Source: Candidatus Multivorans sp. (GTDB lineage Bacteria > Acidobacteriota > Thermoanaerobaculia > Multivoradales > Multivoraceae). From it: DNA of 64,000 bases. Made by a program: the position numbers and the translations under genes. The number at the start of each line of letters is the position of its first letter. Position 1 is the stretch's first letter. The notes beneath the pieces are model-generated. The model had not been told where the DNA came from, ran no database searches, and saw nothing but the letters and a program-made list of their open reading frames with translations. This document shows positions 16,953 to 29,362 of this stretch, piece after piece. The DNA lies in NCBI GenBank assembly GCA_965247095.1, contig OZ251997.1:960001-1024000 (forward strand), given 5' to 3'.

Positions 16953-17777
16953 ATGTCGATGAAGAGAAGGTACTGTTTTCTGGCAGCAGGCCCGCTGGCC
17001 GCGGGCCTGCTGCTGACAGCGGCCGCCGCCGCCCAGCAGCAGCCGGTCGGCTACGACGACACGCCCGAGCTGCCGGGATTGCCCTGGAAGGTGCACGACC
17101 CGAACCGGCCGCTGCCCCCGGTGGTTGCGCCCGGCGCCTCGTTCAGCGACATGGCGGCCGCCCCGGCCGACGCGGTCGTGCTGTTCGACGGCACGGACCT
17201 CTCCAAGTGGCAGAAGGCGGGCGGGGGAGATGCCGAGTGGAAGGTCGAGAACGGGTACATGGAGGTCACTTCCACGGGGTCGATCCGCACCCGGGACGAG
17301 TTCGGCGACTTCCAGCTCCACCTGGAGTTCGCGACGCCAGGCCAGGTCGAGAGCAACAGCCAGGGCCGCGGCAACAGCGGCGTGATGATCTACGGCGACT
17401 ACGAGGTCCAGATCCTCGACTCGTACGAGAACCGGACCTACGCCGACGGCCAGGCGGGCGCGATCTACGGCCAGACGCCGCCGATGGTGAACGCGGCGCG
17501 TCCTCCCGGCGCCTGGCAGACCTACGACATCATCTTCGAGGCGCCGCGCTGGGAGAACGGCGAGGTGACCAAGAAGGCCCACGTCACCGTGATCCACAAC
17601 GGGGTCGTGATCCACCACCGCAAGGAGTACATCGGCCGCACGATCCACCGCCGGGTCGGCGTCTACGACCGTCCCCACGAGCCGCGCGGCTGGATCGGCC
17701 TTCAGGACCACCGGAACCCGACCCGCTTCCGCAACATCTGGATTCGCGAGCTTCCCGGCTATGACCGGGGCGGCTGA
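16953..17777 (+). CDS. Secreted DUF1080 (3-keto-disaccharide hydrolase family) protein
   Basis: Signal peptide; LFDGTDL, FGDFQLHLEF, GNSGV, EVQILDS, WQTYDI and LQDH..P.RFRNIWIR. Confidence 0.9.
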   Translation: MSMKRRYCFLAAGPLAAGLLLTAAAAAQQQPVGYDDTPELPGLPWKVHDPNRPLPPVVAPGASFSDMAAAPADAVVLFDGTDLSKWQKAGGGDAEWKVENGYMEVTSTGSIRTRDEFGDFQLHLEFATPGQVESNSQGRGNSGVMIYGDYEVQILDSYENRTYADGQAGAIYGQTPPMVNAARPPGAWQTYDIIFEAPRWENGEVTKKAHVTVIHNGVVIHHRKEYIGRTIHRRVGVYDRPHEPRGWIGLQDHRNPTRFRNIWIRELPGYDRGG

Positions 17778-17791
17778 GGCCGGCTTCTTCC

Positions 17792-18964
17792 TTGAAGATC
17801 TCCCTCTTCTACCTGCCCTCGATCGGCTCACGGGCCGACATCGAGCAGGGGATGGCCGGCCTGCGCGGCGATCTCTACGACCGGATGCTGGCCGAGGTCT
17901 CGGAGCAGGCCCGCCTCGCCGACGATCTCGGCTACGACTCGATCAGCTTCACCGAACACCACTTCCACATCGAGGGCTTCGAACTTTCGAACAACCCGGT
18001 GCTGCTCGACCTGTTCATCGGCATGCAGACGAAGAACATCCGGGTCGGGCAGTTGGGGATCGTGCTGCCGTCGCGCAACCCGATCCGGGTCGCCGAGGAC
18101 ATCGCGATGCTCGATCGGATGACCGGCGGCCGCGCCAACGCGGGCTTCGCGCGCGGCTACCAGCGGCGCTGGGTCGACGTGATGGCGCAGCAGACGCACG
18201 GGATCTCCGGCGCTCTCCCGCATCAGCGGGACGAGATCGACCGCACCAACCGGGCGGCGTTCGAGGAGTGCTTCCGGATCGTCAAGAAGGCGTGGACCGA
18301 GCCGATGCTCGACTACGACGGGCGGTTCTGGAAGATCCCGGTGGGCGGTCCCGAGGGCGGCACGCCGTGGACGCTCGAGGCCACCGAGCAGTGGGGCGCC
18401 GGGGTGGAGGACGGCGTGCTGCGCCAGGTCGGCGTGGTGCCGAAGCCGGTGCAGAAGCCGCATCCGCCGATCTTCCAGCCGTTCGCCGCGTCCGAGGAGA
18501 GCATCCGATGGTGCGCCAGGGAGGGGGTTACTGCGATTCTGCCGCCGCTCCACCCGAAGCGGGAGCAGGCCCTGTTCGAGCTCTTCGCCAGCGAGTCGGG
18601 ACGGCCTCTCGGCGACGGCATCGGCGTCCTGCGGGACGTGGTCATCGCCGACACGGACGAGGAAGCGGAGCGTCTGTGGAGGTCGAGCGGCGCCTTCTGC
18701 GGCTCCGCCTGGTTCGAGCCCTTCGGGTTCAGCCGCGGCATGCTGGACCCGGATACCGGGGAGGAGTTCGAGGACTTCCTTGGCGCCGGCATGGCGCTCG
18801 TCGGCACCGTCGACACGGTGACGCGGCAGCTCGAGGCCCTGTGCGAGCGCCTGCCCGTGACCTGGCTCTACTTCTGGGCCTACAACGGCCTGCTGCCGCA
18901 CGCGCGGCTGATGACGACGATCGACCGGTTTGCGACCGAGGTGCTGCCGCGGGTCGACGCCTGA
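17792..18964 (+). CDS. Luciferase-like (LLM class) flavin-dependent oxidoreductase
   Basis: FTEHHFH, NPIRVAEDIAMLD and PKPVQKPHPP; TTG start. Confidence 0.88.
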   Translation: MKISLFYLPSIGSRADIEQGMAGLRGDLYDRMLAEVSEQARLADDLGYDSISFTEHHFHIEGFELSNNPVLLDLFIGMQTKNIRVGQLGIVLPSRNPIRVAEDIAMLDRMTGGRANAGFARGYQRRWVDVMAQQTHGISGALPHQRDEIDRTNRAAFEECFRIVKKAWTEPMLDYDGRFWKIPVGGPEGGTPWTLEATEQWGAGVEDGVLRQVGVVPKPVQKPHPPIFQPFAASEESIRWCAREGVTAILPPLHPKREQALFELFASESGRPLGDGIGVLRDVVIADTDEEAERLWRSSGAFCGSAWFEPFGFSRGMLDPDTGEEFEDFLGAGMALVGTVDTVTRQLEALCERLPVTWLYFWAYNGLLPHARLMTTIDRFATEVLPRVDA

Positions 18965-21971: not shown

Positions 21972-23168
21972 TCAGCCGAGCTGGGGCCGGTTGCGACGCC
22001 AGGCCTCGATGCCCTGCAGGTGGCGGGCCGCGTCCTGCTCCAGGGCGGCGGCCAGCAGTGAGTTGAGCTTCTCGTCCATGAACAGGTGGGAACTGTAGAC
22101 CGGCGCGGGCTCGAAGCCCCGGCTGATCTTGTGCTCGCCGCCGGCGCCGCCTTCGAAGACCTGGACGCCGCGTTCGATGCACTCGTCGATCGAGTGGTAG
22201 AGGCAGACGTTGAAGTGCAGGAAACGGTGCTCCTCGTGACAACCCCAGTAACGGCCGTAGAGGTGGGTTTCGGAGCGTAGATTGATCGCGCCGGCGATGA
22301 CACGGTCTGCCCGTTCGGCGATGACCAGCTCGATTTCGCCGTCCAGTCGAGCGAAGAGATCGTGGAACAACGCGCGGTTCAGGTAGCGGCCGCCCCACAT
22401 GTACCTGTCACAGGTCGTACCGTAGAGGTCGAAGGCGGTATCCGCCCAGCGCGCCGGATCGGCGGCGATCTCCTCGCCCCTCACGGTGCGGATGTCGATC
22501 CCCTGGCGGGCTGGTTCGCGTCGCTCACGGCGACATTGCGTGCGGCGCTTCGAACGAAGCCTGACCAGCCAGTCCTCTGACGTCCGGTAGTCGTAGTTGC
22601 GCCAGTGATACTGGACCATGACGCGCTGGGCAAGTCCGGCGCCGGCGAGAGCGTCGACCTCCGTCGCGCTGTGGTAGAGGACGTGAACGGAGGCGATCCC
22701 GACCTCGCGGGCGGTGTGGGCGGCAAGCTGGACCAACATTCGCGCGGCGAGCGCCGGATCGATGCTGTTCGAAGCCAGGATACGGCGCCCGGTAACAGGA
22801 GAGAATGGCACGCCGACCACGAGCTTCGGGTAGAAGCGGCCGCCGGCGGCGCGGACCGCGTCACCGAAAGCCCAGTCGCGGGAGAAGTCGCCCATGCCGT
22901 CATTCTTGATGTAGGCGGGAGCGGCAGCGAGAAGGGTGTCCTCCGAGGTCCAGGCGGTCAGGTGAAACGGAAGCCAACCCCGCTCGCCGGCCGCACAGCC
23001 CGTGCGCTCAAGCGCCTCCAGAAAGGTCCAGGACAGGAAGGGCCGGTCGCCCGCCTTGAGCAGGCCGTCCCAGCTCGGTTGGGGGATGTCCGCCATCGAC
23101 TGGACGATGCGCAACTCAATGGTCCGATCGGCGCCTTCCGGGCGCTGAGTGGCCGTTGAGTCGTCCAT
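21972..23168 (-). CDS. DUF482 / FemAB-like double-GNAT protein
   Basis: PF..W.FL.ALE..GC, YPKLVVGVPFSPVTG, QYHW.N, LYGRYWG, LHFNVCLY and GAGGEHK..RGF. Confidence 0.88.
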   Translation of the reverse strand: MDDSTATQRPEGADRTIELRIVQSMADIPQPSWDGLLKAGDRPFLSWTFLEALERTGCAAGERGWLPFHLTAWTSEDTLLAAAPAYIKNDGMGDFSRDWAFGDAVRAAGGRFYPKLVVGVPFSPVTGRRILASNSIDPALAARMLVQLAAHTAREVGIASVHVLYHSATEVDALAGAGLAQRVMVQYHWRNYDYRTSEDWLVRLRSKRRTQCRRERREPARQGIDIRTVRGEEIAADPARWADTAFDLYGTTCDRYMWGGRYLNRALFHDLFARLDGEIELVIAERADRVIAGAINLRSETHLYGRYWGCHEEHRFLHFNVCLYHSIDECIERGVQVFEGGAGGEHKISRGFEPAPVYSSHLFMDEKLNSLLAAALEQDAARHLQGIEAWRRNRPQLG

Positions 23169-23227
23169 CAACCGTCAGTTTGGCATGTCCGGCGGTCCCC
23201 TCGGCCGTTCCCGGCCCAAGCCGGCCG

Positions 23228-24350
23228 TCAGGAGTCCGGTGTCGCCTTGGCCGACGCGCCGGGTATCAACCGTTTCCGATACTCGGAAGGACTGTAGCCG
23301 ACGGTGGCGCGAAACACACGCCGGAAGCTCCGGTCGCATTGGAACCCCACCGCGCGTGCGACCCGCGCCACGGGAACGTCGGACTCCCGGAGCATCAGGC
23401 AGCCGCGCTCGACCCGGTGGCGGGCCAGCCAGGAGCGAAAAGTCATTCCCACACGCTGCCGGAAGTAGCGTCCGAAGCTCGAAGGCGCCAATGCGGCAAT
23501 GGCGGCGACTGAGTCGAGGGTCAGCGCCTCGCCGATGTGCTCGTCGACATGGCGGCGAACGCGTGCCAGGCGCTCGAAGTAGTGAAACGGGTCGTACGGA
23601 CCATCGGGCGACGCCGAAGAGTCCCCATAGGTCGTGCTCGGGCTCACTCCAGAACCGATCGGGCGGAGGTCGACGTAAGCGGCGCCGTAGCACTCCATCG
23701 ACACTCTCGGAACGACCTTCACGCAGCGGTTCCAGCCGGGCGCCCACTCCGCGAACGTCTGGTACTCGCTGTTCTCCCCGCTGGGGTCGACGTGAGCCGG
23801 CAGATCGGTGAGAAAGGCCTCGTCGAACTTGCGGCCCACCAGGCGCGCTGGGAGTTGCGCCTTTTCAACGGCGTACACCCAAGCTGAGAGGCCGGCAGCG
23901 AACATCGCCTTCACGTGCCTCCTCGGATCCCGTCCCGCGAGTGGAAAGGCCGCCTTCAGGCCGGTACCGGCTAGCAGAACGGACGGGCGGTCTTCGAATC
24001 GCGGTACGAGGTCGCCAAAGGCAACCGCCTCTGCTCCGCGGCGGCGAAGGTCCCGGAAGGCGCTCTCCAGATCCGAGTCGCAGACGCTGAAGGACCGTCC
24101 GCGGGCAGCGCACTCGACCACCAGCAGGGGCAGGCCGGCTGCCGCTGCCTGTTCCTCCAGCAGTTCCTGCGTACCCCGTGGCCGGCGCCTCGTCCGTCGA
24201 AGCGGCTGACCGCCGCAATCAGCCCGACAACATCCCAGGAGGGTCGGATCGGAGCTCGTACAGAGCCCACGCCGCGTCCTTGTTTGCCGTCCACCACACC
24301 CACGTAGTGGTGCCCTGCCGGCGTCTCGTCATTGCCGGTGTCTCTCCCAT
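23228..24350 (-). pseudogene. Dph6/MJ0570-like PP-loop domain fused to AraC HTH, paralog A; two apparent 1-nt deletions (about 24241 and 24166)
   Basis: Three successive frames give WVWWTANKDAAWALYEL / WDVVGLIAAV..HGVRR / ELLEEQAAAAGLPL..FGDL..FPL..DPSGENSEYQTF, then AraC (SSFGRYFRQRVGMTF..GFQCDRSFRRVFRATVGYSPSEYR); colinear with paralog B. Confidence 0.8.
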
Positions 24351-24363
24351 TTCCTCGGGGCGC

Positions 24364-25584
24364 CTACCCAGCCATTGTGAACGGCTTGGACGGGCGCGCT
24401 ATTCCTTCCGGGTGTCGCGCCGCCGGTCCTGTTCGGGTCGATTGGGCGGGTGGTCCGACGTGAGCCTCAGTCGTCCAGGAGGCCCGTTTCCCGGCCGGCA
24501 CGGCAGTCGCGAGGTACCGCGTTCTGTACTGCGAAGGGCAGCAGCCCGATCGCGCACGGAAGACGCGTCGGAACGTTCTGCTGCACGAAAAACCAGCGGT
24601 CCGACCGACCGCGGCCACCGTCATGTCGCACCGGCGCAGGAGCAGGCGGGCGTGGGCTACACGATGGCTAACCAGCCACTGCCGAAACGACATCCCCACG
24701 TGCTGATGGAAGTAGCGCCTGAAGCTGGACGGGGTCATCGCCGCCGCCGAGGCAAGGGACTCGAGCCTCAGCTCGTCGGACAGGTGCGCGTCGACGTAGC
24801 GAATCACCCGACAGAGGCGGGCGTCGCACTCGAACGGATCGCGTTCTTCCCTGGCCAACGAATGGAAACGGTCTTCGCTGACCCGCACACCGGCTGGTGC
24901 GACCTCCAGGTCGGCAAGAGTCAGGGGACCGCGTTCGATCAGGCGGCTGGGCTTCACCGACACGCGGCGGTCCCATCCGGGCGCCCACTCCACGAAGGTG
25001 TGGAACTCGTCGCTGTCCCCGCTGGGCGCCACGTGGTCCGGCAGAGCGGCGAGAAAGCGGCTATCGAAGGTGGCGCCCGCCAGATCGGATCGGACTTCGG
25101 CCGTCGCCACCGCACAGACCCAGGCCGACAGGCCCGCCGACAGGAGCTCGTCGGCGTGTCTCCGCGAGTTGCGCCCCCAGAGGGGGAATGTGGGTCTCAG
25201 TCCGGTCCCTTCAAGGAGGAGAGACCGTCCTATTCGTTTACGTGGGCAGGACAGGTCGCCGAAGGCGACGAAGTCGGTTCCATCCCGTGCGAAGCGGCCG
25301 AGAACGTCCTGAACGGCGGACTCGTAGGCGCCGGATGGCGTCTCCCCTTCACATTCGATGGTGAGGAGGGGCAGGCCGACGGCCGTTGCCTGCTCTTCGA
25401 TGAGCTCTCTTCTGACGCCATGCACCACATGGCGGCCGCAGGACCGGCCCACGACCGTGATCAGTCCGCGGACCTCCCAGTGGGAACTCGACTGCAGCAG
25501 TTTCAGGGCCCAGGCAGCGTCCTTGTCGCCGGTCCACCAGAGCCAGGTCCGCCGGAAGCTCTCAAAAGAGGCACGCCTGACCAT
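24364..25584 (-). CDS. Dph6/MJ0570-like PP-loop domain fused to AraC HTH, paralog B (intact)
   Basis: WWTGDKDAAWAL, HGVRRELIEEQA..GLPL, VAFGDL, FPLWG and SGDSDEFHTFV, then AraC double HTH; AGGAGG SD 6 nt upstream of ATG. Confidence 0.88.
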   Translation of the reverse strand: MVRRASFESFRRTWLWWTGDKDAAWALKLLQSSSHWEVRGLITVVGRSCGRHVVHGVRRELIEEQATAVGLPLLTIECEGETPSGAYESAVQDVLGRFARDGTDFVAFGDLSCPRKRIGRSLLLEGTGLRPTFPLWGRNSRRHADELLSAGLSAWVCAVATAEVRSDLAGATFDSRFLAALPDHVAPSGDSDEFHTFVEWAPGWDRRVSVKPSRLIERGPLTLADLEVAPAGVRVSEDRFHSLAREERDPFECDARLCRVIRYVDAHLSDELRLESLASAAAMTPSSFRRYFHQHVGMSFRQWLVSHRVAHARLLLRRCDMTVAAVGRTAGFSCSRTFRRVFRARSGCCPSQYRTRYLATAVPAGKRASWTTEAHVGPPAQSTRTGPAARHPEGIARPSKPFTMAG

Positions 25585-25627
25585 AACGATCCTCCTGCGC
25601 TCAACGAGCCGGAGTTAGGGGCGTTTC

Positions 25628-25648
25628 GCTACCCGCTTGGCGGGTGGC
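25628..25648. promoter_or_regulatory. Inverted repeat upstream of the PP-loop/AraC genes
   Basis: ACCCGC-TTG-GCGGGT core hairpin. Confidence 0.35.
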
Positions 25649-25765
25649 TTCTGTACGGTACTAGACCGAAGTTCTGGGGGCCTGAGTGTCGCGGATCGTT
25701 GCCGCGCCTAGGGTTTTGCGGTTTCCGAGCCGCAAAGTGTACCCATGTATGATGGTCGAATGCGG

Positions 25766-25794
25766 TAGACATGGAGACATGATGAAGCTACAAT
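25766..25794 (+). promoter_or_regulatory. Sigma70-type promoter of the transposase, probably leaderless
   Basis: TAGACA-17 nt-TACAAT, with ATG 7 nt after the -10 hexamer. Confidence 0.6.
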
Positions 25795-25801
25795 AGAAGC
25801 C

Positions 25802-27538
25802 ATGTACATCGAACGCGTACCCAACCGCAACTCGCCACCCGCCGTGCTCCTGCGCGAGTCCTACCGAGACCACGGAAGAGTCTGCAAACGGACACTCGCC
25901 AACCTCTCCAAGTGGCCCGATCATCTCGTTGAGGGCCTGCGCACTCTCCTCAAGGGCGGCGTCGCACTGCCCTCCCTCGACTCCGCCTTCGAAATCCTGC
26001 GCTCCAGGCCCCACGGTCATGTCGCCGCCACGCTCGGCGCCGCGCGACGACGCGGCCTCGAGACACTCCTCGACCGCCGACCCTCGCGCGAACGGGCGCT
26101 CGCGCTCGCCATGATCATCGCCCGCATCCTCGAACCTCGCTCCAAGCTCGCCACCGCACGCGGACTCTCAAGCGAGACCTCGTCCCACACCCTCGGCGAG
26201 GAACTCGGAGTCGAGGAGGCGGGCGCCGACGAGCTCTACTCCGCCATGGATTGGCTGCTCAAACGGCAGCAACGCATCGAGCGACGGCTGGCCGAACAGC
26301 ACCTCAAAGACGGTTGCCTCGTCTTGTGCGACGTGACCTCGGTCTACTTCGAGGGCGCGAAATGCGCCCTCGCCCGGCGCGGGTACTCCAAGGACGGCAA
26401 GCCGGGCAAGCCCCAGATCGTCTTCGCGCTGCTCTGCAACCGGGACGGATGCCCGGTCGCGGTCGAGGTCTTCGAAGGCAACACCGCCGATCCCGGCACG
26501 CTGAGTTCCCAAGTGCAGAAGCTCAACGAGCGCTTCTCGCTCGACCGCGTGGTCATGGTCGGCGATCGGGGCCTGCTCACCAGCGCCCGCATCCGCGAAG
26601 ACCTCGAACCCGGCGGCCTGTCGTGGATCACTGCCCTGCGCGCGCCCGCGATCCGCACCCTGGTGCAGCAGGGCCACCTGCAACTGTCGATCTTCGACGA
26701 ACGGGACATGGCCGAACTGAGCGCCCCCGAGCTGTACCCCGCAGAGCGGCTGATCGTGTGCCGGAACCCGCTCCTGGCAACCAGGCGGCGCCGCAAGCGC
26801 CAGGAGCTTCTCGACGCCACCGAGCGCAAGCTGGAGGCCGTCGCCGAAGCGACAAGGCGCCCACAGCGCCCCCTGCGGGGCAAGGACAAGATCGCCGCCC
26901 GCGCCGACCGCGCCCTGCGCGCCCACAAGGTCGGCAAGCACTTCGACACCGAGATCGACGAAGACGGCTTCCGCTACTGCCGCAATCAGACGCGGATCGC
27001 CGAAGAGGCCGCCCTCGACGGCTTCTACGTCATCCGCACCAACGTGGCCGAGGCCGACCTCCCGGCGCCGGAGGCGGTCCGGGCCTACAAGAGCCTCAGC
27101 CGCGTCGAGCGCGCCTTCCGCAGCTACAAGAGCGTCGACCTCAAGGTGCGGCCCGTCCACCATCGCCTGGCCGACAGAGTGCGAGCCCACGTCTTTCTGT
27201 GCATGCTCGCCTACTACGTCGAGTGGCACATGCGACGCCTTCTCGCTCCCTTGCTCTTCGACGACGACGACCCCAGGGACCAACGCTCCTCGCCCGTCCA
27301 GCCGGCTCGCCGGTCCCCCGCAGCCCGCGCCAAGGCGAGCGCCAAGCGCACACCGCAAGGACTACCCGTCCACAGCTTCCAGACCCTGCTCGCCGACCTG
27401 GCCACCCTGACCCGAAATCGCGTCCGAATGCAGGGCCACGAGAACGCCACCGCGGATGTCCTGGCCAGACCGACACCCCTCCAGGCCGAGGCCTTCAGCC
27501 TCCTCAACCTACCGACCATGACCAACCGTACCCAGTAG
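25802..27538 (+). CDS. IS1634-family DDE transposase
   Basis: LLRESYR..G.V..RTLANLS, LCDVTSVYFEG, GYSKDGK, VGDRG, DGFYVIRTN and Y..L..VERAFR..K..LKVRPVHH. Confidence 0.93.
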   Translation: MYIERVPNRNSPPAVLLRESYRDHGRVCKRTLANLSKWPDHLVEGLRTLLKGGVALPSLDSAFEILRSRPHGHVAATLGAARRRGLETLLDRRPSRERALALAMIIARILEPRSKLATARGLSSETSSHTLGEELGVEEAGADELYSAMDWLLKRQQRIERRLAEQHLKDGCLVLCDVTSVYFEGAKCALARRGYSKDGKPGKPQIVFALLCNRDGCPVAVEVFEGNTADPGTLSSQVQKLNERFSLDRVVMVGDRGLLTSARIREDLEPGGLSWITALRAPAIRTLVQQGHLQLSIFDERDMAELSAPELYPAERLIVCRNPLLATRRRRKRQELLDATERKLEAVAEATRRPQRPLRGKDKIAARADRALRAHKVGKHFDTEIDEDGFRYCRNQTRIAEEAALDGFYVIRTNVAEADLPAPEAVRAYKSLSRVERAFRSYKSVDLKVRPVHHRLADRVRAHVFLCMLAYYVEWHMRRLLAPLLFDDDDPRDQRSSPVQPARRSPAARAKASAKRTPQGLPVHSFQTLLADLATLTRNRVRMQGHENATADVLARPTPLQAEAFSLLNLPTMTNRTQ

Positions 27539-27649
27539 ACAACACACCCTTATCCAAAAAAACACCGTCATTGCAGGAGTTTCACGACTTGGGCACCAGA
27601 ACTTCGGACTAGAGCCAAGGAACGGCGTAAGCGCAAGGCTCACGCGTGG

Positions 27650-27700
27650 TTTCGTCCGGTCTCCGTTTTCGCCTGTCCGTTTTCGGCTTTCCGTTGTCCG
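27650..27700. repeat. 7/14-bp periodic direct-repeat array in the intergenic region
   Basis: TCCGTTTTCG at 27662 and 27676, TCCGTTGTCC at 27690; seven heptamers each ending in TC from 27650. Confidence 0.7.
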
Positions 27701-27718: not shown

Positions 27719-29362
27719 TCAGTAGCCCAGCGCCGCTCCGTCCTTGCGGGGATCCGAGGCGCCGACCAGGGTGCCGTGGCGGTCGATGCGAATCGCCTGA
27801 GCGCCTCCGAACTCGGCTCCGCCGGCGATCCGCACGTGGTGGCCGAGGTCCTCGAGACCGGCGACGGTCTGCGCCTCCATGCCGCGTTCGCACAACAGGT
27901 CAAGGCCTGTGGTGTGGCGCCAGCGCGGACGGTCGATCGCCGCCTGCAGCGAGAGCCCGTGGTCGTAGTGGTTGGTCAGGAGTTGGACATGCCCCTGGGG
28001 TTGGAAGGGGCCGCCCATCACGCCGTAGCAGAGCTCCAGCCTGCCCGAGTTCAGGACCATGCCGGGGATGATCGTGTGGAAGGGACGCTTGCCGGGTTGG
28101 TACTCGTTGGGGTGTCCGGGCGCCAGGGTAAAGCCGGCGCCGCGGTTGTGGAGCAGGATGCCGGTGTCTCCGCCCACGATCGCGGCGCCGAAGGGCGCGA
28201 ACAGGGAGTTGATGAAGGAGGCGGCGTTGCCGTCGCCGTCGACGACCGCGAGGTAGACCGTGTCCGAGCCGGCACGACCTCCGCCGGTGGGGATTTCGCC
28301 CGCGCCGACGAGCGATGCCGCGCGGCGAGGATCGATCTGACGACTCCGTTCCCGGGCGTAGCCCTTGTCCAACAGCTCGCTCAGCGGTACGCCGCCGCCG
28401 GTGCGGAGGGGATGGCCGTCCGGGTCGCCGACGTGAGCGTGGAGGTCGGCGTAAGCGAGCTTCTTCGCTTCGACCAGCAGGTGGGTGTGCTCGACGCCTC
28501 CCAGGTCCATGGCGGCCAGATCGAAGTTCTCAAGCAGATTGAGCATGAGCAGGACGCCCAACCCCTGACCGTTCGGCGGCAACTGGGCGACCTCGCGGCC
28601 GCGGTAGCGGGTGCCGATCGGATGGACCCAGGTCGACGTGTGGCGCTTGAAGTCATCGAGCTGGAGGAAGCCGCCGGTGCTTTGGGAGTAGCGCACGATC
28701 TCCTCGGCGATCGGTCCGCGGTAGAAGGCGTCTCGCCCGTTCCGTGCGATGCGACGGAGCGAGCGCGCGAGGGCGGGGGACCGGAAGGCGGCGCCGAGTT
28801 CCGGCGCGTCGCCGTCCGGGAGATAGTGCGTCGCCGCCGCCTGGTCGCGGCGCAACCTGTCCGCGCAGGCGCGCCACATGCCCTGCACGCGCTCACTGAC
28901 GGGGAAGCCCTGCTCGGCGGTCTCGGTCGCCGGGCCGATCAGATCGGCAAAGTGCAGGCGACCGAACCGCTCGTGCGCGGTCTGCCAGAGATCGACCGCG
29001 CCGGGGACGGTGACCGCCGGCCACGAGTCGGGTTCGATCGCGTCGCCGGCGAGCGCCTCTCGCGCCAGCCCCGCGGGTGAGCGTCCGCTGCCGTTGAGGC
29101 CCAGGAGTTCGCCCGGCCCGCCTTCCGGGTCGGCCCGGTAGTAGAGCAGGAACGCGTCGCCGCCGATGCCGGTCATCATCGGTTCGACCACCGCCAGCAT
29201 CGCGGCCGCCGCGACCGCTCCGTCGATCGCCGAGCCGCCGGCCCGCAGCATGTCGAGGCCAGCCAGGGTGGCCTGCGGATGGGATGTCGCCACCATGCCC
29301 CGGCACGCCATGACCAGGCTCCGGCCAGGCCGGTGGGGGCTGGCGAGCCTCGGAACCGTCAC
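27719..29362 (-). CDS. ggt: Gamma-glutamyltransferase
   Basis: GGSAIDGAVA..VVEPMMTGIGGD, VTVPG, LPPNGQG, autocatalytic Thr in SDTVYLAVVD, PGKRPFHTIIP and GASDPRKDG. Confidence 0.93.
   Translation of the reverse strand: MTVPRLASPHRPGRSLVMACRGMVATSHPQATLAGLDMLRAGGSAIDGAVAAAAMLAVVEPMMTGIGGDAFLLYYRADPEGGPGELLGLNGSGRSPAGLAREALAGDAIEPDSWPAVTVPGAVDLWQTAHERFGRLHFADLIGPATETAEQGFPVSERVQGMWRACADRLRRDQAAATHYLPDGDAPELGAAFRSPALARSLRRIARNGRDAFYRGPIAEEIVRYSQSTGGFLQLDDFKRHTSTWVHPIGTRYRGREVAQLPPNGQGLGVLLMLNLLENFDLAAMDLGGVEHTHLLVEAKKLAYADLHAHVGDPDGHPLRTGGGVPLSELLDKGYARERSRQIDPRRAASLVGAGEIPTGGGRAGSDTVYLAVVDGDGNAASFINSLFAPFGAAIVGGDTGILLHNRGAGFTLAPGHPNEYQPGKRPFHTIIPGMVLNSGRLELCYGVMGGPFQPQGHVQLLTNHYDHGLSLQAAIDRPRWRHTTGLDLLCERGMEAQTVAGLEDLGHHVRIAGGAEFGGAQAIRIDRHGTLVGASDPRKDGAALGY

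Follow-up and report, generated by a model that had tools for sequence, protein, structure and literature searches.

Few bacterial one-component systems are as common as the AraC-family regulators, whose sensor domains are drawn from a small set of folds. What, then, is a domain related to PP-loop ATP pyrophosphatases doing at the N-terminus of such a regulator? The question is raised by two neighbouring genes, here called A and B, in a stretch of 64,000 nucleotides (nt) from the genome of Candidatus Multivorans sp., an acidobacterium (assembly GCA_965247095.1, contig OZ251997.1, positions 960,001 to 1,024,000). We refer to the whole of this stretch as the window and use its numbering throughout. 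The two genes had been interpreted, in a sequence-only reading made without database searches, as tandem paralogues that each join a full but degenerate Dph6-like PP-loop domain to an AraC double helix-turn-helix (HTH). In our analysis A is an intact fusion gene of a family found in one bacterial genus, and B is a pseudogene in this strain. On balance we consider it probable that A and B represent lineage-specific one-component AraC-type regulators whose N-terminal domain, formerly an enzyme, binds a nucleotide-type ligand and has lost the ancestral reaction.

Domain architecture of gene A

Gene A encodes 406 amino acids (aa). A Pfam scan matched PF01902 to residues 15-215 (E 7.6e-21; 75.1 bits versus a cut-off of 23.2) and HTH_18 to residues 277-356, over profile positions 1-80 of 80 (E 4.8e-21), and HTH_AraC also matches in two stretches. 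The complete AraC double HTH expected from the sequence alone is thus confirmed in A, and HTH_18 is likewise found in the open reading frame (ORF) of B. The motifs WWTGDKDAAWAL, HGVRRELIEEQATAVGLPL, AFGDL, FPLWG, and GATFDSRFLAALPDHVAPSGDSDEFHTF are all present in A, the PP-loop reads T18-G-D-K-D-A23, and both H55 and E193-F194-H195-T196 are retained. Sequence matches in the PDB include 3rjz (E 5.6e-10) and 2k9s (E 1.8e-14). No family in an NCBIfam scan of A, AraC equivalogs included, reaches its own cut-off.

The AlphaFold2 model of A (mean pLDDT 85.9, pTM 0.62, from a 107-row alignment) consists of two confident bodies, residues 11-228 and 250-361, with pLDDT above 90 over most of the first. 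Linker residues 238-247 and the tail, 365-406, fall below 50, and the tail is disordered. When the two halves were compared with the PDB by Foldseek, the N-terminal half matched PH1257 (2d13; E 1.8e-11, target-normalised TM 0.79) and PF0828 (3rjz, 3rk0, 3rk1; target-normalised TM 0.73-0.80), with E values for all of these ranging from 1.8e-11 to 5e-9. The C-terminal half matched AdpA and AraC (target-normalised TM 0.86 and 0.84; 3w6v, 2k9s) together with many AraC-type domains, and no PDB chain matched both halves of A. The assignment of the N-domain to PF01902 is therefore upheld by sequence and by fold. A homodimer model of the N-domain (two copies of residues 8-235) scored 0.00, which speaks neither for nor against a dimer.

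Distribution of the fusion

A word-indexed protein search with A returned about 60 two-domain cluster representatives, along with stand-alone relatives of about 225 aa that are 35-43% identical to the N-domain of A. The only names on the two-domain representatives are 'helix-turn-helix domain-containing protein' and, in one source, 'diphthamide synthase/AraC-like DNA-binding protein'. When 1.84 billion representatives at 50% identity were searched exhaustively with phmmer, 48 matches had E <= 1e-30. Seven of the 150 matches listed span both domains in one stretch (P0013, P0121, P0122, P0025, P0125, P0127, and P0129), two of which (P0127 and P0129) were verified as PF01902 plus HTH_18; shorter pieces across the domain junction are also among the 150.

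Within the genus, one or more matches that span both domains occur in 20 of 24 other genomes, pieces only in one, and no match in three; there are up to about eight full-length matches per genome. The window's own genome has three copies, namely A, B, and a third at G000:C1:4137638-4138720. No two-domain match was found in 16 genomes from other families of the same order. In an even draw of 401 genomes from the phylum, two-domain matches occur in this genus only (8 of 8, plus the window's own genome), and 80 other genomes have the stand-alone N-domain only. One match outside the genus, in G309 (query 12-391, three internal TGA codons), seemed to have both domains but proved to be a stand-alone DUF71 gene followed by a Peripla_BP_2 gene. 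A further scan used patterns derived from A, so that it could find relatives only; all 71 related loci that it recovered are in metagenome-assembled genomes named Candidatus Multivorans, Ca. Multivoraceae, Thermoanaerobaculia, Acidobacteria, or similar. The public runs that contain the stretch include sponge metagenomes.

In the genomes searched, the fusion is found only in one genus-level lineage, where it has several paralogues per genome. The joining of the two domains is real, and it is rare. No published description or characterisation of a PP-loop/DUF71-AraC fusion was found in a literature search over a limited collection, in keeping with the earlier view that the architecture is undescribed, and the word AraC has no occurrence in the available text of the main comparative study of the DUF71 family (PMC3541065). 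Six of the 71 related loci are frameshifted or truncated, and the family shows birth-and-death turnover. One contig (G004:C1; L035 and L050) carries three fusion copies within about 30 kb, one of them split across frames (17126-17431 and 17429-18163). The precomputed Pfam label PF28410.1 appears on many fusion and stand-alone members.

Selection on the N-terminal domain

Ratios of nonsynonymous to synonymous substitution rates (dN/dS) were calculated within orthologous groups with a simple Nei-Gojobori (NG86) script, using genes from our own GC3-based caller and pairs that are not independent. For the paralogue adjacent to trp genes (90 pairs), dN/dS is 0.196 in the N-domain, 0.220 in the HTH domain, and 0.563 in the linker (20 usable pairs). 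The corresponding values are 0.242, 0.148, and 0.595 for the groESL-adjacent group (10 pairs) and 0.176, 0.180, and 0.510 for the B group (three pairs). The only pair for A, in which the partner is the truncated copy at locus L056, gives 0.246, 0.485, and 0.109, and the N-domain values of three more single-pair groups lie between 0.058 and 0.214. Apart from the single A pair, all groups have a looser linker than domains. Purifying selection acts on both domains, and the N-domain is about as constrained as the DNA-binding domain. The sequence-only reading had named three findings that would count against it: an N-domain outside PF01902, a fusion family already characterised, and a lack of purifying selection on the N-domain. 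None of these was obtained.

Origin of the N-terminal domain

To place the N-domain we constructed a phylogenetic tree of 80 rows (a quick IQ-TREE run with LG+G4; the midpoint root is for drawing only). A branch with SH-aLRT 97 separates the 33 fusion rows and one 209-aa fragment from the stand-alone DUF71-B12 proteins described below, among which the genus's own stand-alone DUF71 is nested deep. The fusion N-domains thus make up one clade with a single origin, which fits one fusion event and a later expansion of paralogues.

The available text of PMC3541065 divides the family into true Dph6, with the motif EGGE/DxE188, and a bacterial group, 'DUF71-B12', with the motif ENGEF/YH. The latter is predicted to act in cobamide salvage, as 75 of 102 genes adjoin B12 transporters, and diphthamide is described as absent from Bacteria (PMC3541065). 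Where Dph6 by that definition has E-G-G-E/D-x-E188, A has D-S-D-E-F-H, and its score against NCBIfam TIGR03679 is 48.6 bits versus a cut-off of 197.3. The core E-F-H-T of the DUF71-B12 motif is present in 65 of 66 intact fusion genes (A and 65 loci), and the preceding E-N-G is variable (D-S-D in A, G-N-D in many others). Since the fusion proteins carry the E-F-H form, their N-domains appear to descend from the bacterial DUF71-B12 branch and not from Dph6 proper. The label 'Dph6-like' is thus right as to the PF01902 fold but has to be amended as to type, the motif being E-F-H rather than E-x-E.

The archaeal Dph6-type proteins PF0828 (3RJZ/3RK0/3RK1) and PH1257 (2D13), the best structural matches to residues ~11-228 of A, have in common with it the K-D of the PP-loop and the phosphate-contacting His and Thr. 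Unlike the fusions, they lack an HTH and have E-G-G-E/D-x-E188 in place of E-F-H. The residues around the ATP phosphates in PF0828 are given as S12, G13, G14, K15, D16, H48, and T189 (PMC3541065, available text), and those aligned to them in A are T, G, D, K, D, H, and T.

Stand-alone DUF71-B12 proteins (COG2102/PF01902; 'Dph6-related ATP pyrophosphatase' and TIGR00290 in source names) occur in the same genus and widely over the phylum. They have the same fold as the fusion N-domains and the same E-F-H-T, but at about 225-235 aa they are without a DNA-binding domain, and their motifs FGDLFLEDxRxYRE and P-x-x-C-x-N are absent from all or nearly all fusions. They also adjoin Peripla_BP_2 genes and, once, a cobalamin adenosyltransferase gene, whereas the fusions do not. 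Stand-alone DUF71 genes of the genus, with an SGGKDS loop (L127-L133), lie between MMPL and Peripla_BP_2 (BtuF-like) genes at five of seven loci, and the one in G309 (L137) lies between cobalamin adenosyltransferase (Cob_adeno_trans) and Peripla_BP_2 genes. These neighbourhoods are consistent with the B12-salvage prediction as set out in the available text of PMC3541065. No stand-alone match was found in the window's own genome with A as the query. No B12-related family is among the neighbour families of the fusion loci scanned with Pfam, and an Rfam scan of eight related loci and the window matched no family, the cobalamin riboswitch included.

Residues retained, lost, and gained

A column comparison of 53 fusion proteins with 56 stand-alone proteins (numbering of A) separates three sets of residues. 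Retained in the fusions are W17 (92%), K21 (91%), and D22 (83%) of the PP-loop region, R51, Q65, P134, P182, G189, E193, and P202 (each 100%), F108 and H195 (98%), R120 (92%), G109 (91%), and R117 (72%). Four residues that hardly vary in the stand-alone proteins occur in none of the 53 fusions, namely L113 (100% of stand-alones), D115 (95%), P79 (93%), and N84 (95%), and C82 falls from 91% to 4%. L113 and D115 belong to the FGDLFLEDxRxYRE motif. Newly fixed in the fusions are H143 (96%), A201 (96%), and W204 (100%). Among the 66 intact genes, H55-G56 is found in all, W204 in 65, and H143 in 64.

The PP-loop itself has the form [ST]GGK[DE][STA] in 46 of these 66 genes; the others have TSGKDS/A (12), SSGKDS (3), SGGKNS (3), TAGKDS (1), and, in A only, TGDKDA (1). 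The trp-adjacent copy at L002 1474-2589 is one of the paralogues with a canonical loop. The claim of a degenerate loop is therefore correct for A (TGDKDA) and B (TANKDA), neither of which has the canonical S-G-G-K-D-S, but does not extend to the family. In the A lineage (P0001-P0005, 58-96% identical to A) all members have D20. Their loops are TGDKDA in P0001-P0003, NGDKDA in P0004, and TGDNEA in P0005, where the loop lysine is lost too, and B-lineage loops are TANKDA or TACKDA. Judged from these patterns, the fusion family looks able to hold a nucleotide, yet is without a block of residues specific to the stand-alone enzymes. A and B go further, in that the phosphate loop itself is altered (G to D or N).

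Decay of gene B and an insertion upstream of gene A

As described in the sequence-only reading, whose coordinates are correct and whose match is far above chance, A and B are adjacent paralogues on the same strand; they are about 48% identical, and the ATG of B, at 24350, lies 13 nt past the A stop (Table 1). The only open B frame in the ORF list of the window is 23228-24121 (297 aa, GTG start), which matches PF01902 over profile positions 77-199 only (33.7 bits; 56.0 bits for the intact B orthologue P0016). The first ~85 residues of B, including the TANKDA loop, sit upstream in two other frames. Over the 300 nt upstream of the ORF, frame 1 reads MGETPAMTRRRQGTTTWVWWTANKDAAWALYELRSDP, frame 0 reads SWDVVGLIAAVSRFDGRGAGHGVRR, and the frame of the ORF reads ELLEEQAAAAGLPLL. 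This corresponds to two -1 frameshifts (1-nt deletions), near 24240 and 24165, and the intact 374-aa B orthologues P0008 and P0016 cross both sites in one frame.

Contigs of four public runs were aligned to 22900-27700. Runs X11 and X1, from two other studies, have an extra base behind 24165 and another behind 24240, by which the frame is restored; in X11 the coverage of 22900-25623 is a single 5598-nt contig at depth 18.2. The contigs of run X7 (records 25 and 26; depth 25-29) agree with the window without gaps. This run, in which 0.99 of the sampled words are found, is possibly the source sample and so tests the assembly and not another strain. A sequencing or assembly error and programmed frameshifting were both rejected on these grounds. 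As X11 and X1 carry the missing bases and X7 agrees with the window, B is a recent pseudogene in this strain that is intact in related strains. A full PP-loop domain, previously ascribed to both genes by a reading that evidently crossed the frameshifts, is present in A but interrupted in B, and with B inactivated by two frameshifts only A is predicted to be able to work in this strain. Within the first codons of A, run X11 lacks one nucleotide at 25561 and has an additional one behind 25565, a compensating pair that alters one or two residues of the unconserved N-terminus.

Table 1 Features of the A/B locus in window coordinates
Feature	Position	Strand	Basis
Gene A, intact 406-aa fusion of a PP-loop domain (PF01902/DUF71-type) and an AraC double HTH	24364..25584	-	ORF list, Pfam, AlphaFold, Foldseek
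N-terminal PP-loop domain of A, residues 11-228	24901..25554	-	AlphaFold secondary structure and pLDDT, Foldseek, column comparison
AraC-type DNA-binding domain of A, residues 250-361, seven helices	24502..24837	-	HTH_18, AlphaFold helices and pLDDT, Foldseek
Gene B, pseudogene of a 374-aa paralogue	23228..24350	-	Three-frame translation, intact orthologues, contigs of other runs
Insertion sequence (IS) of 1952 nt carrying a DDE transposase gene between 22-nt terminal inverted repeats	25661..27612	+	Repeats, DDE_Tnp_1, X11/X1 junction
Transposase ORF of the IS, 578 aa	25802-27538	+	DDE_Tnp_1 (Pfam)
Terminal inverted repeats of the IS, 22 nt	25661-25682 and 27591-27612		Repeat search
Gamma-glutamyltranspeptidase (GGT) gene, conserved upstream neighbour	27719..29362	-	PF01019 E 2.7e-142; same order in L019, L056
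FemAB_like (GNAT-fold) gene, conserved downstream neighbour, 56 nt after B	21972..23171	-	PF04339 E 2.2e-121; same order in L019, L056

An IS lies upstream of A, with 76 nt between its edge and the A start codon. In the X11 and X1 contigs only 33 other letters separate 25623 from 27608, so the IS is absent from those strains. Between GGT and A the IS-free strains have an interval of 183 nt. The 4.6-Mb genome has four full-length copies at 92-100% identity and seven of a relative at 80%. IS activity in this symbiont looks recent, and the insertion may have altered the expression of A. In a scan for sigma-70-type promoters, the only site found precedes the transposase. Read depth over the IS is 10-100 times that of the flanks in the runs examined.

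The gene order at the locus is DUF5916 - GGT - (IS) - A - B - FemAB_like - ClpS - ClpA, on one strand. A is missing from the corresponding locus L019 (DUF5916 - GGT - B orthologue - FemAB_like), and L056 has GGT - truncated A - intact B - FemAB_like. The A orthologue of L056 (5992-6873) is a 293-aa ORF, 76 nt past the GGT stop, that begins at A residue ~95, so that the PP-loop is missing there. L056, with A truncated and B intact, is the mirror image of the window, with A intact and B broken. A and B are each dispensable singly, which argues against the heterodimer suggested earlier; as an obligate pair it is unlikely. The locus is a record of gene decay under way in one strain, by IS insertion and by frameshifts that were checked in contigs from independent runs, and cautions against treating the tandem pair as a functional two-gene system.

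A probable nucleotide-sensing regulator and its alternatives

The fusions have the layout of effector domain, linker, and DNA-binding domain that is known from AraC/XylS regulators (AraC, AdpA, ToxT, and Rns; CdpR and FtrA of the DJ-1 type). The N-domains of those regulators are cupin, DJ-1, GyrI-like, or receiver domains, whereas that of the fusions has a PP-loop (HUP-class) fold. Nucleotide-handling enzyme folds are tied to transcription control in BirA, NadR, and the USP domain of KdpD, and an adenine-nucleotide alpha-hydrolase-like nucleotide sensor is thus not without parallel. The folds or families and the output modules of these proteins differ from those of the fusion, and the likeness is one of analogy only.

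In the mechanism we propose, a domain derived from a bacterial DUF71-type PP-loop ATP pyrophosphatase would have taken the place of the sensor and dimerisation domain that AraC-type regulators usually have at the N-terminus. The recruited domain would no longer carry out the ancestral reaction but would bind a ligand that contains an adenine nucleotide (ATP or AMP, or an adenylated or adenosylated metabolite), and its ligand-driven closure would be relayed to the DNA-binding domain through the linker of about 20 residues. With a phosphate loop in which G has changed to D or N, the A and B sub-lineages probably differ from the other members in ligand or in affinity. Across the family, genes next to the regulator that encode secreted or surface proteins would be the likely targets; for A and B the candidates are GGT and FemAB_like, on either side of the pair.

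Several points weigh against this interpretation. Catalysis may persist, as the loop is canonical in 46 of 66 members and E-F-H-T is kept, and folding or dimerisation alone could account for the conserved N-domain. The dN/dS values come from a simple script, our own gene calls, and non-independent pairs, and in the sole A pair, whose partner is a truncated copy, that of the HTH domain is 0.49. With an IS upstream of A and with B decaying, the whole locus may be on its way to being lost in this strain. The association with neighbouring genes rests on closely related genomes of one genus.

If the N-domain still adenylated a substrate, with the adenylate intermediate or product controlling DNA binding, the fusions would be bifunctional enzyme-regulators. 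The canonical loops are what such proteins would be expected to have, and a further 15 genes have TSGKDS/A or SSGKDS, the latter of which is also found in the stand-alone protein P0061; H55-G56 and EFHT are essentially invariant, and R117 and R120 are largely retained. However, L113 and D115 are missing from every fusion and P-x-x-C-x-N from nearly all, A has Asp at the second glycine of the loop and one member of its lineage has no loop lysine, and the neighbour families scanned include no recurring biosynthetic partner. We regard a bifunctional protein of this kind, proposed by analogy with BirA and NadR, as rather unlikely. A PP-loop domain that is purely a scaffold would make the fusion a constitutive regulator controlled by its own abundance, the domain serving dimerisation or stability without a ligand. 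Some AraC-family members, such as MarA and SoxS, are ligand-free. A mere scaffold would not need the residues of a nucleotide site, yet the best-conserved residues of the family (K21, D22, H55, E193, H195, and T196) line that of PF0828 as described in the available text of PMC3541065, and we consider a scaffold very unlikely.

Another explanation concerns this strain, in which A and B may both be non-functional remnants at a locus that is eroding through IS insertion and frameshifts, as in other IS-rich host-associated genomes. The two 1-nt deletions in B are real, the IS is absent from two other strains and has four near-identical copies in the genome, A is truncated in L056, six of the 71 related loci are broken or truncated, and three of the 24 other genus genomes have no match. 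Against this, the frame of A is open over 406 codons, intact 406-aa proteins are known at 96% and 90% identity to A, the N-domain dN/dS of the A pair is 0.246, and 76 nt are left between the end of the IS and the A start codon. Loss of function of the entire locus is, in our judgement, unlikely.

In the fusions a PP-loop ATP-pyrophosphatase fold was recruited once, kept under selection, and multiplied in an uncultivated lineage of sponge- and coral-associated Acidobacteriota. The family is a clean natural case of an enzyme turned regulator, with catalytic motifs lost in graded fashion across paralogues, and offers a way to learn what these symbionts respond to and which of their surface proteins are under such control.

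Neighbouring genes and candidate targets

The paralogues among 40 fetched loci fall into several positional groups. A recurrent partner is a CarboxypepD_reg protein of about 800 aa (cluster c3), which has only three copies in the window's own genome. In L026, L030, L032, and L034 its gene either follows that of the trp-adjacent paralogue at a distance of 3 nt or shares 11 nt with it, and regulator and CarboxypepD_reg gene probably form one operon. The order of the two is reversed in L036 and L039, with gaps of 57-69 nt, and the protein is also encoded near paralogues of two other groups (L023; L040/L041). It is the best candidate target of the fusion family. A second recurrent neighbour is a 590-aa Acidobacteriota-specific hypothetical protein, present about a dozen times in the window's own genome (17 match segments). 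A protein-atlas look-up of the two gave only 'CarboxypepD_reg-repeat protein' and 'Acidobacteriota hypothetical protein'. These recurrent neighbours are leads to targets, not demonstrations. Adjacency to the trp operon (14 loci) was not accepted as a functional link, being one orthologous position in one genus; trpA and the regulator are separated by gaps of 346-835 nt or by intervening ORFs.

A more specific proposal joins these leads to the origin of the N-domain. The family would be a metabolite sensor recycled from a cobamide-salvage enzyme, in which an adenosylated or adenylated ligand (corrinoid-related, or an acyl-adenylate formed in situ) switches on genes for secreted or surface proteins in sponge symbionts, for example the co-transcribed CarboxypepD_reg gene. 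We hold this to be speculative and, as a whole, distinctly improbable. If true, it would add a new class of AraC sensor and a new route of reading a cofactor, besides riboswitches and CarH-type proteins.

The bacterial DUF71 domain occurs in other fusions as well. Among 10 long matches scanned, four are fusions with a GNAT acetyltransferase domain, one with a 4'-phosphopantetheinyl transferase, and one with a DUF2284 domain (library proteins P0134, P0146, P0167, P0177, P0161, and P0243). The DUF71-GNAT fusions and the GNAT-fold FemAB_like neighbour of B are a possible hint as to the kind of substrate.

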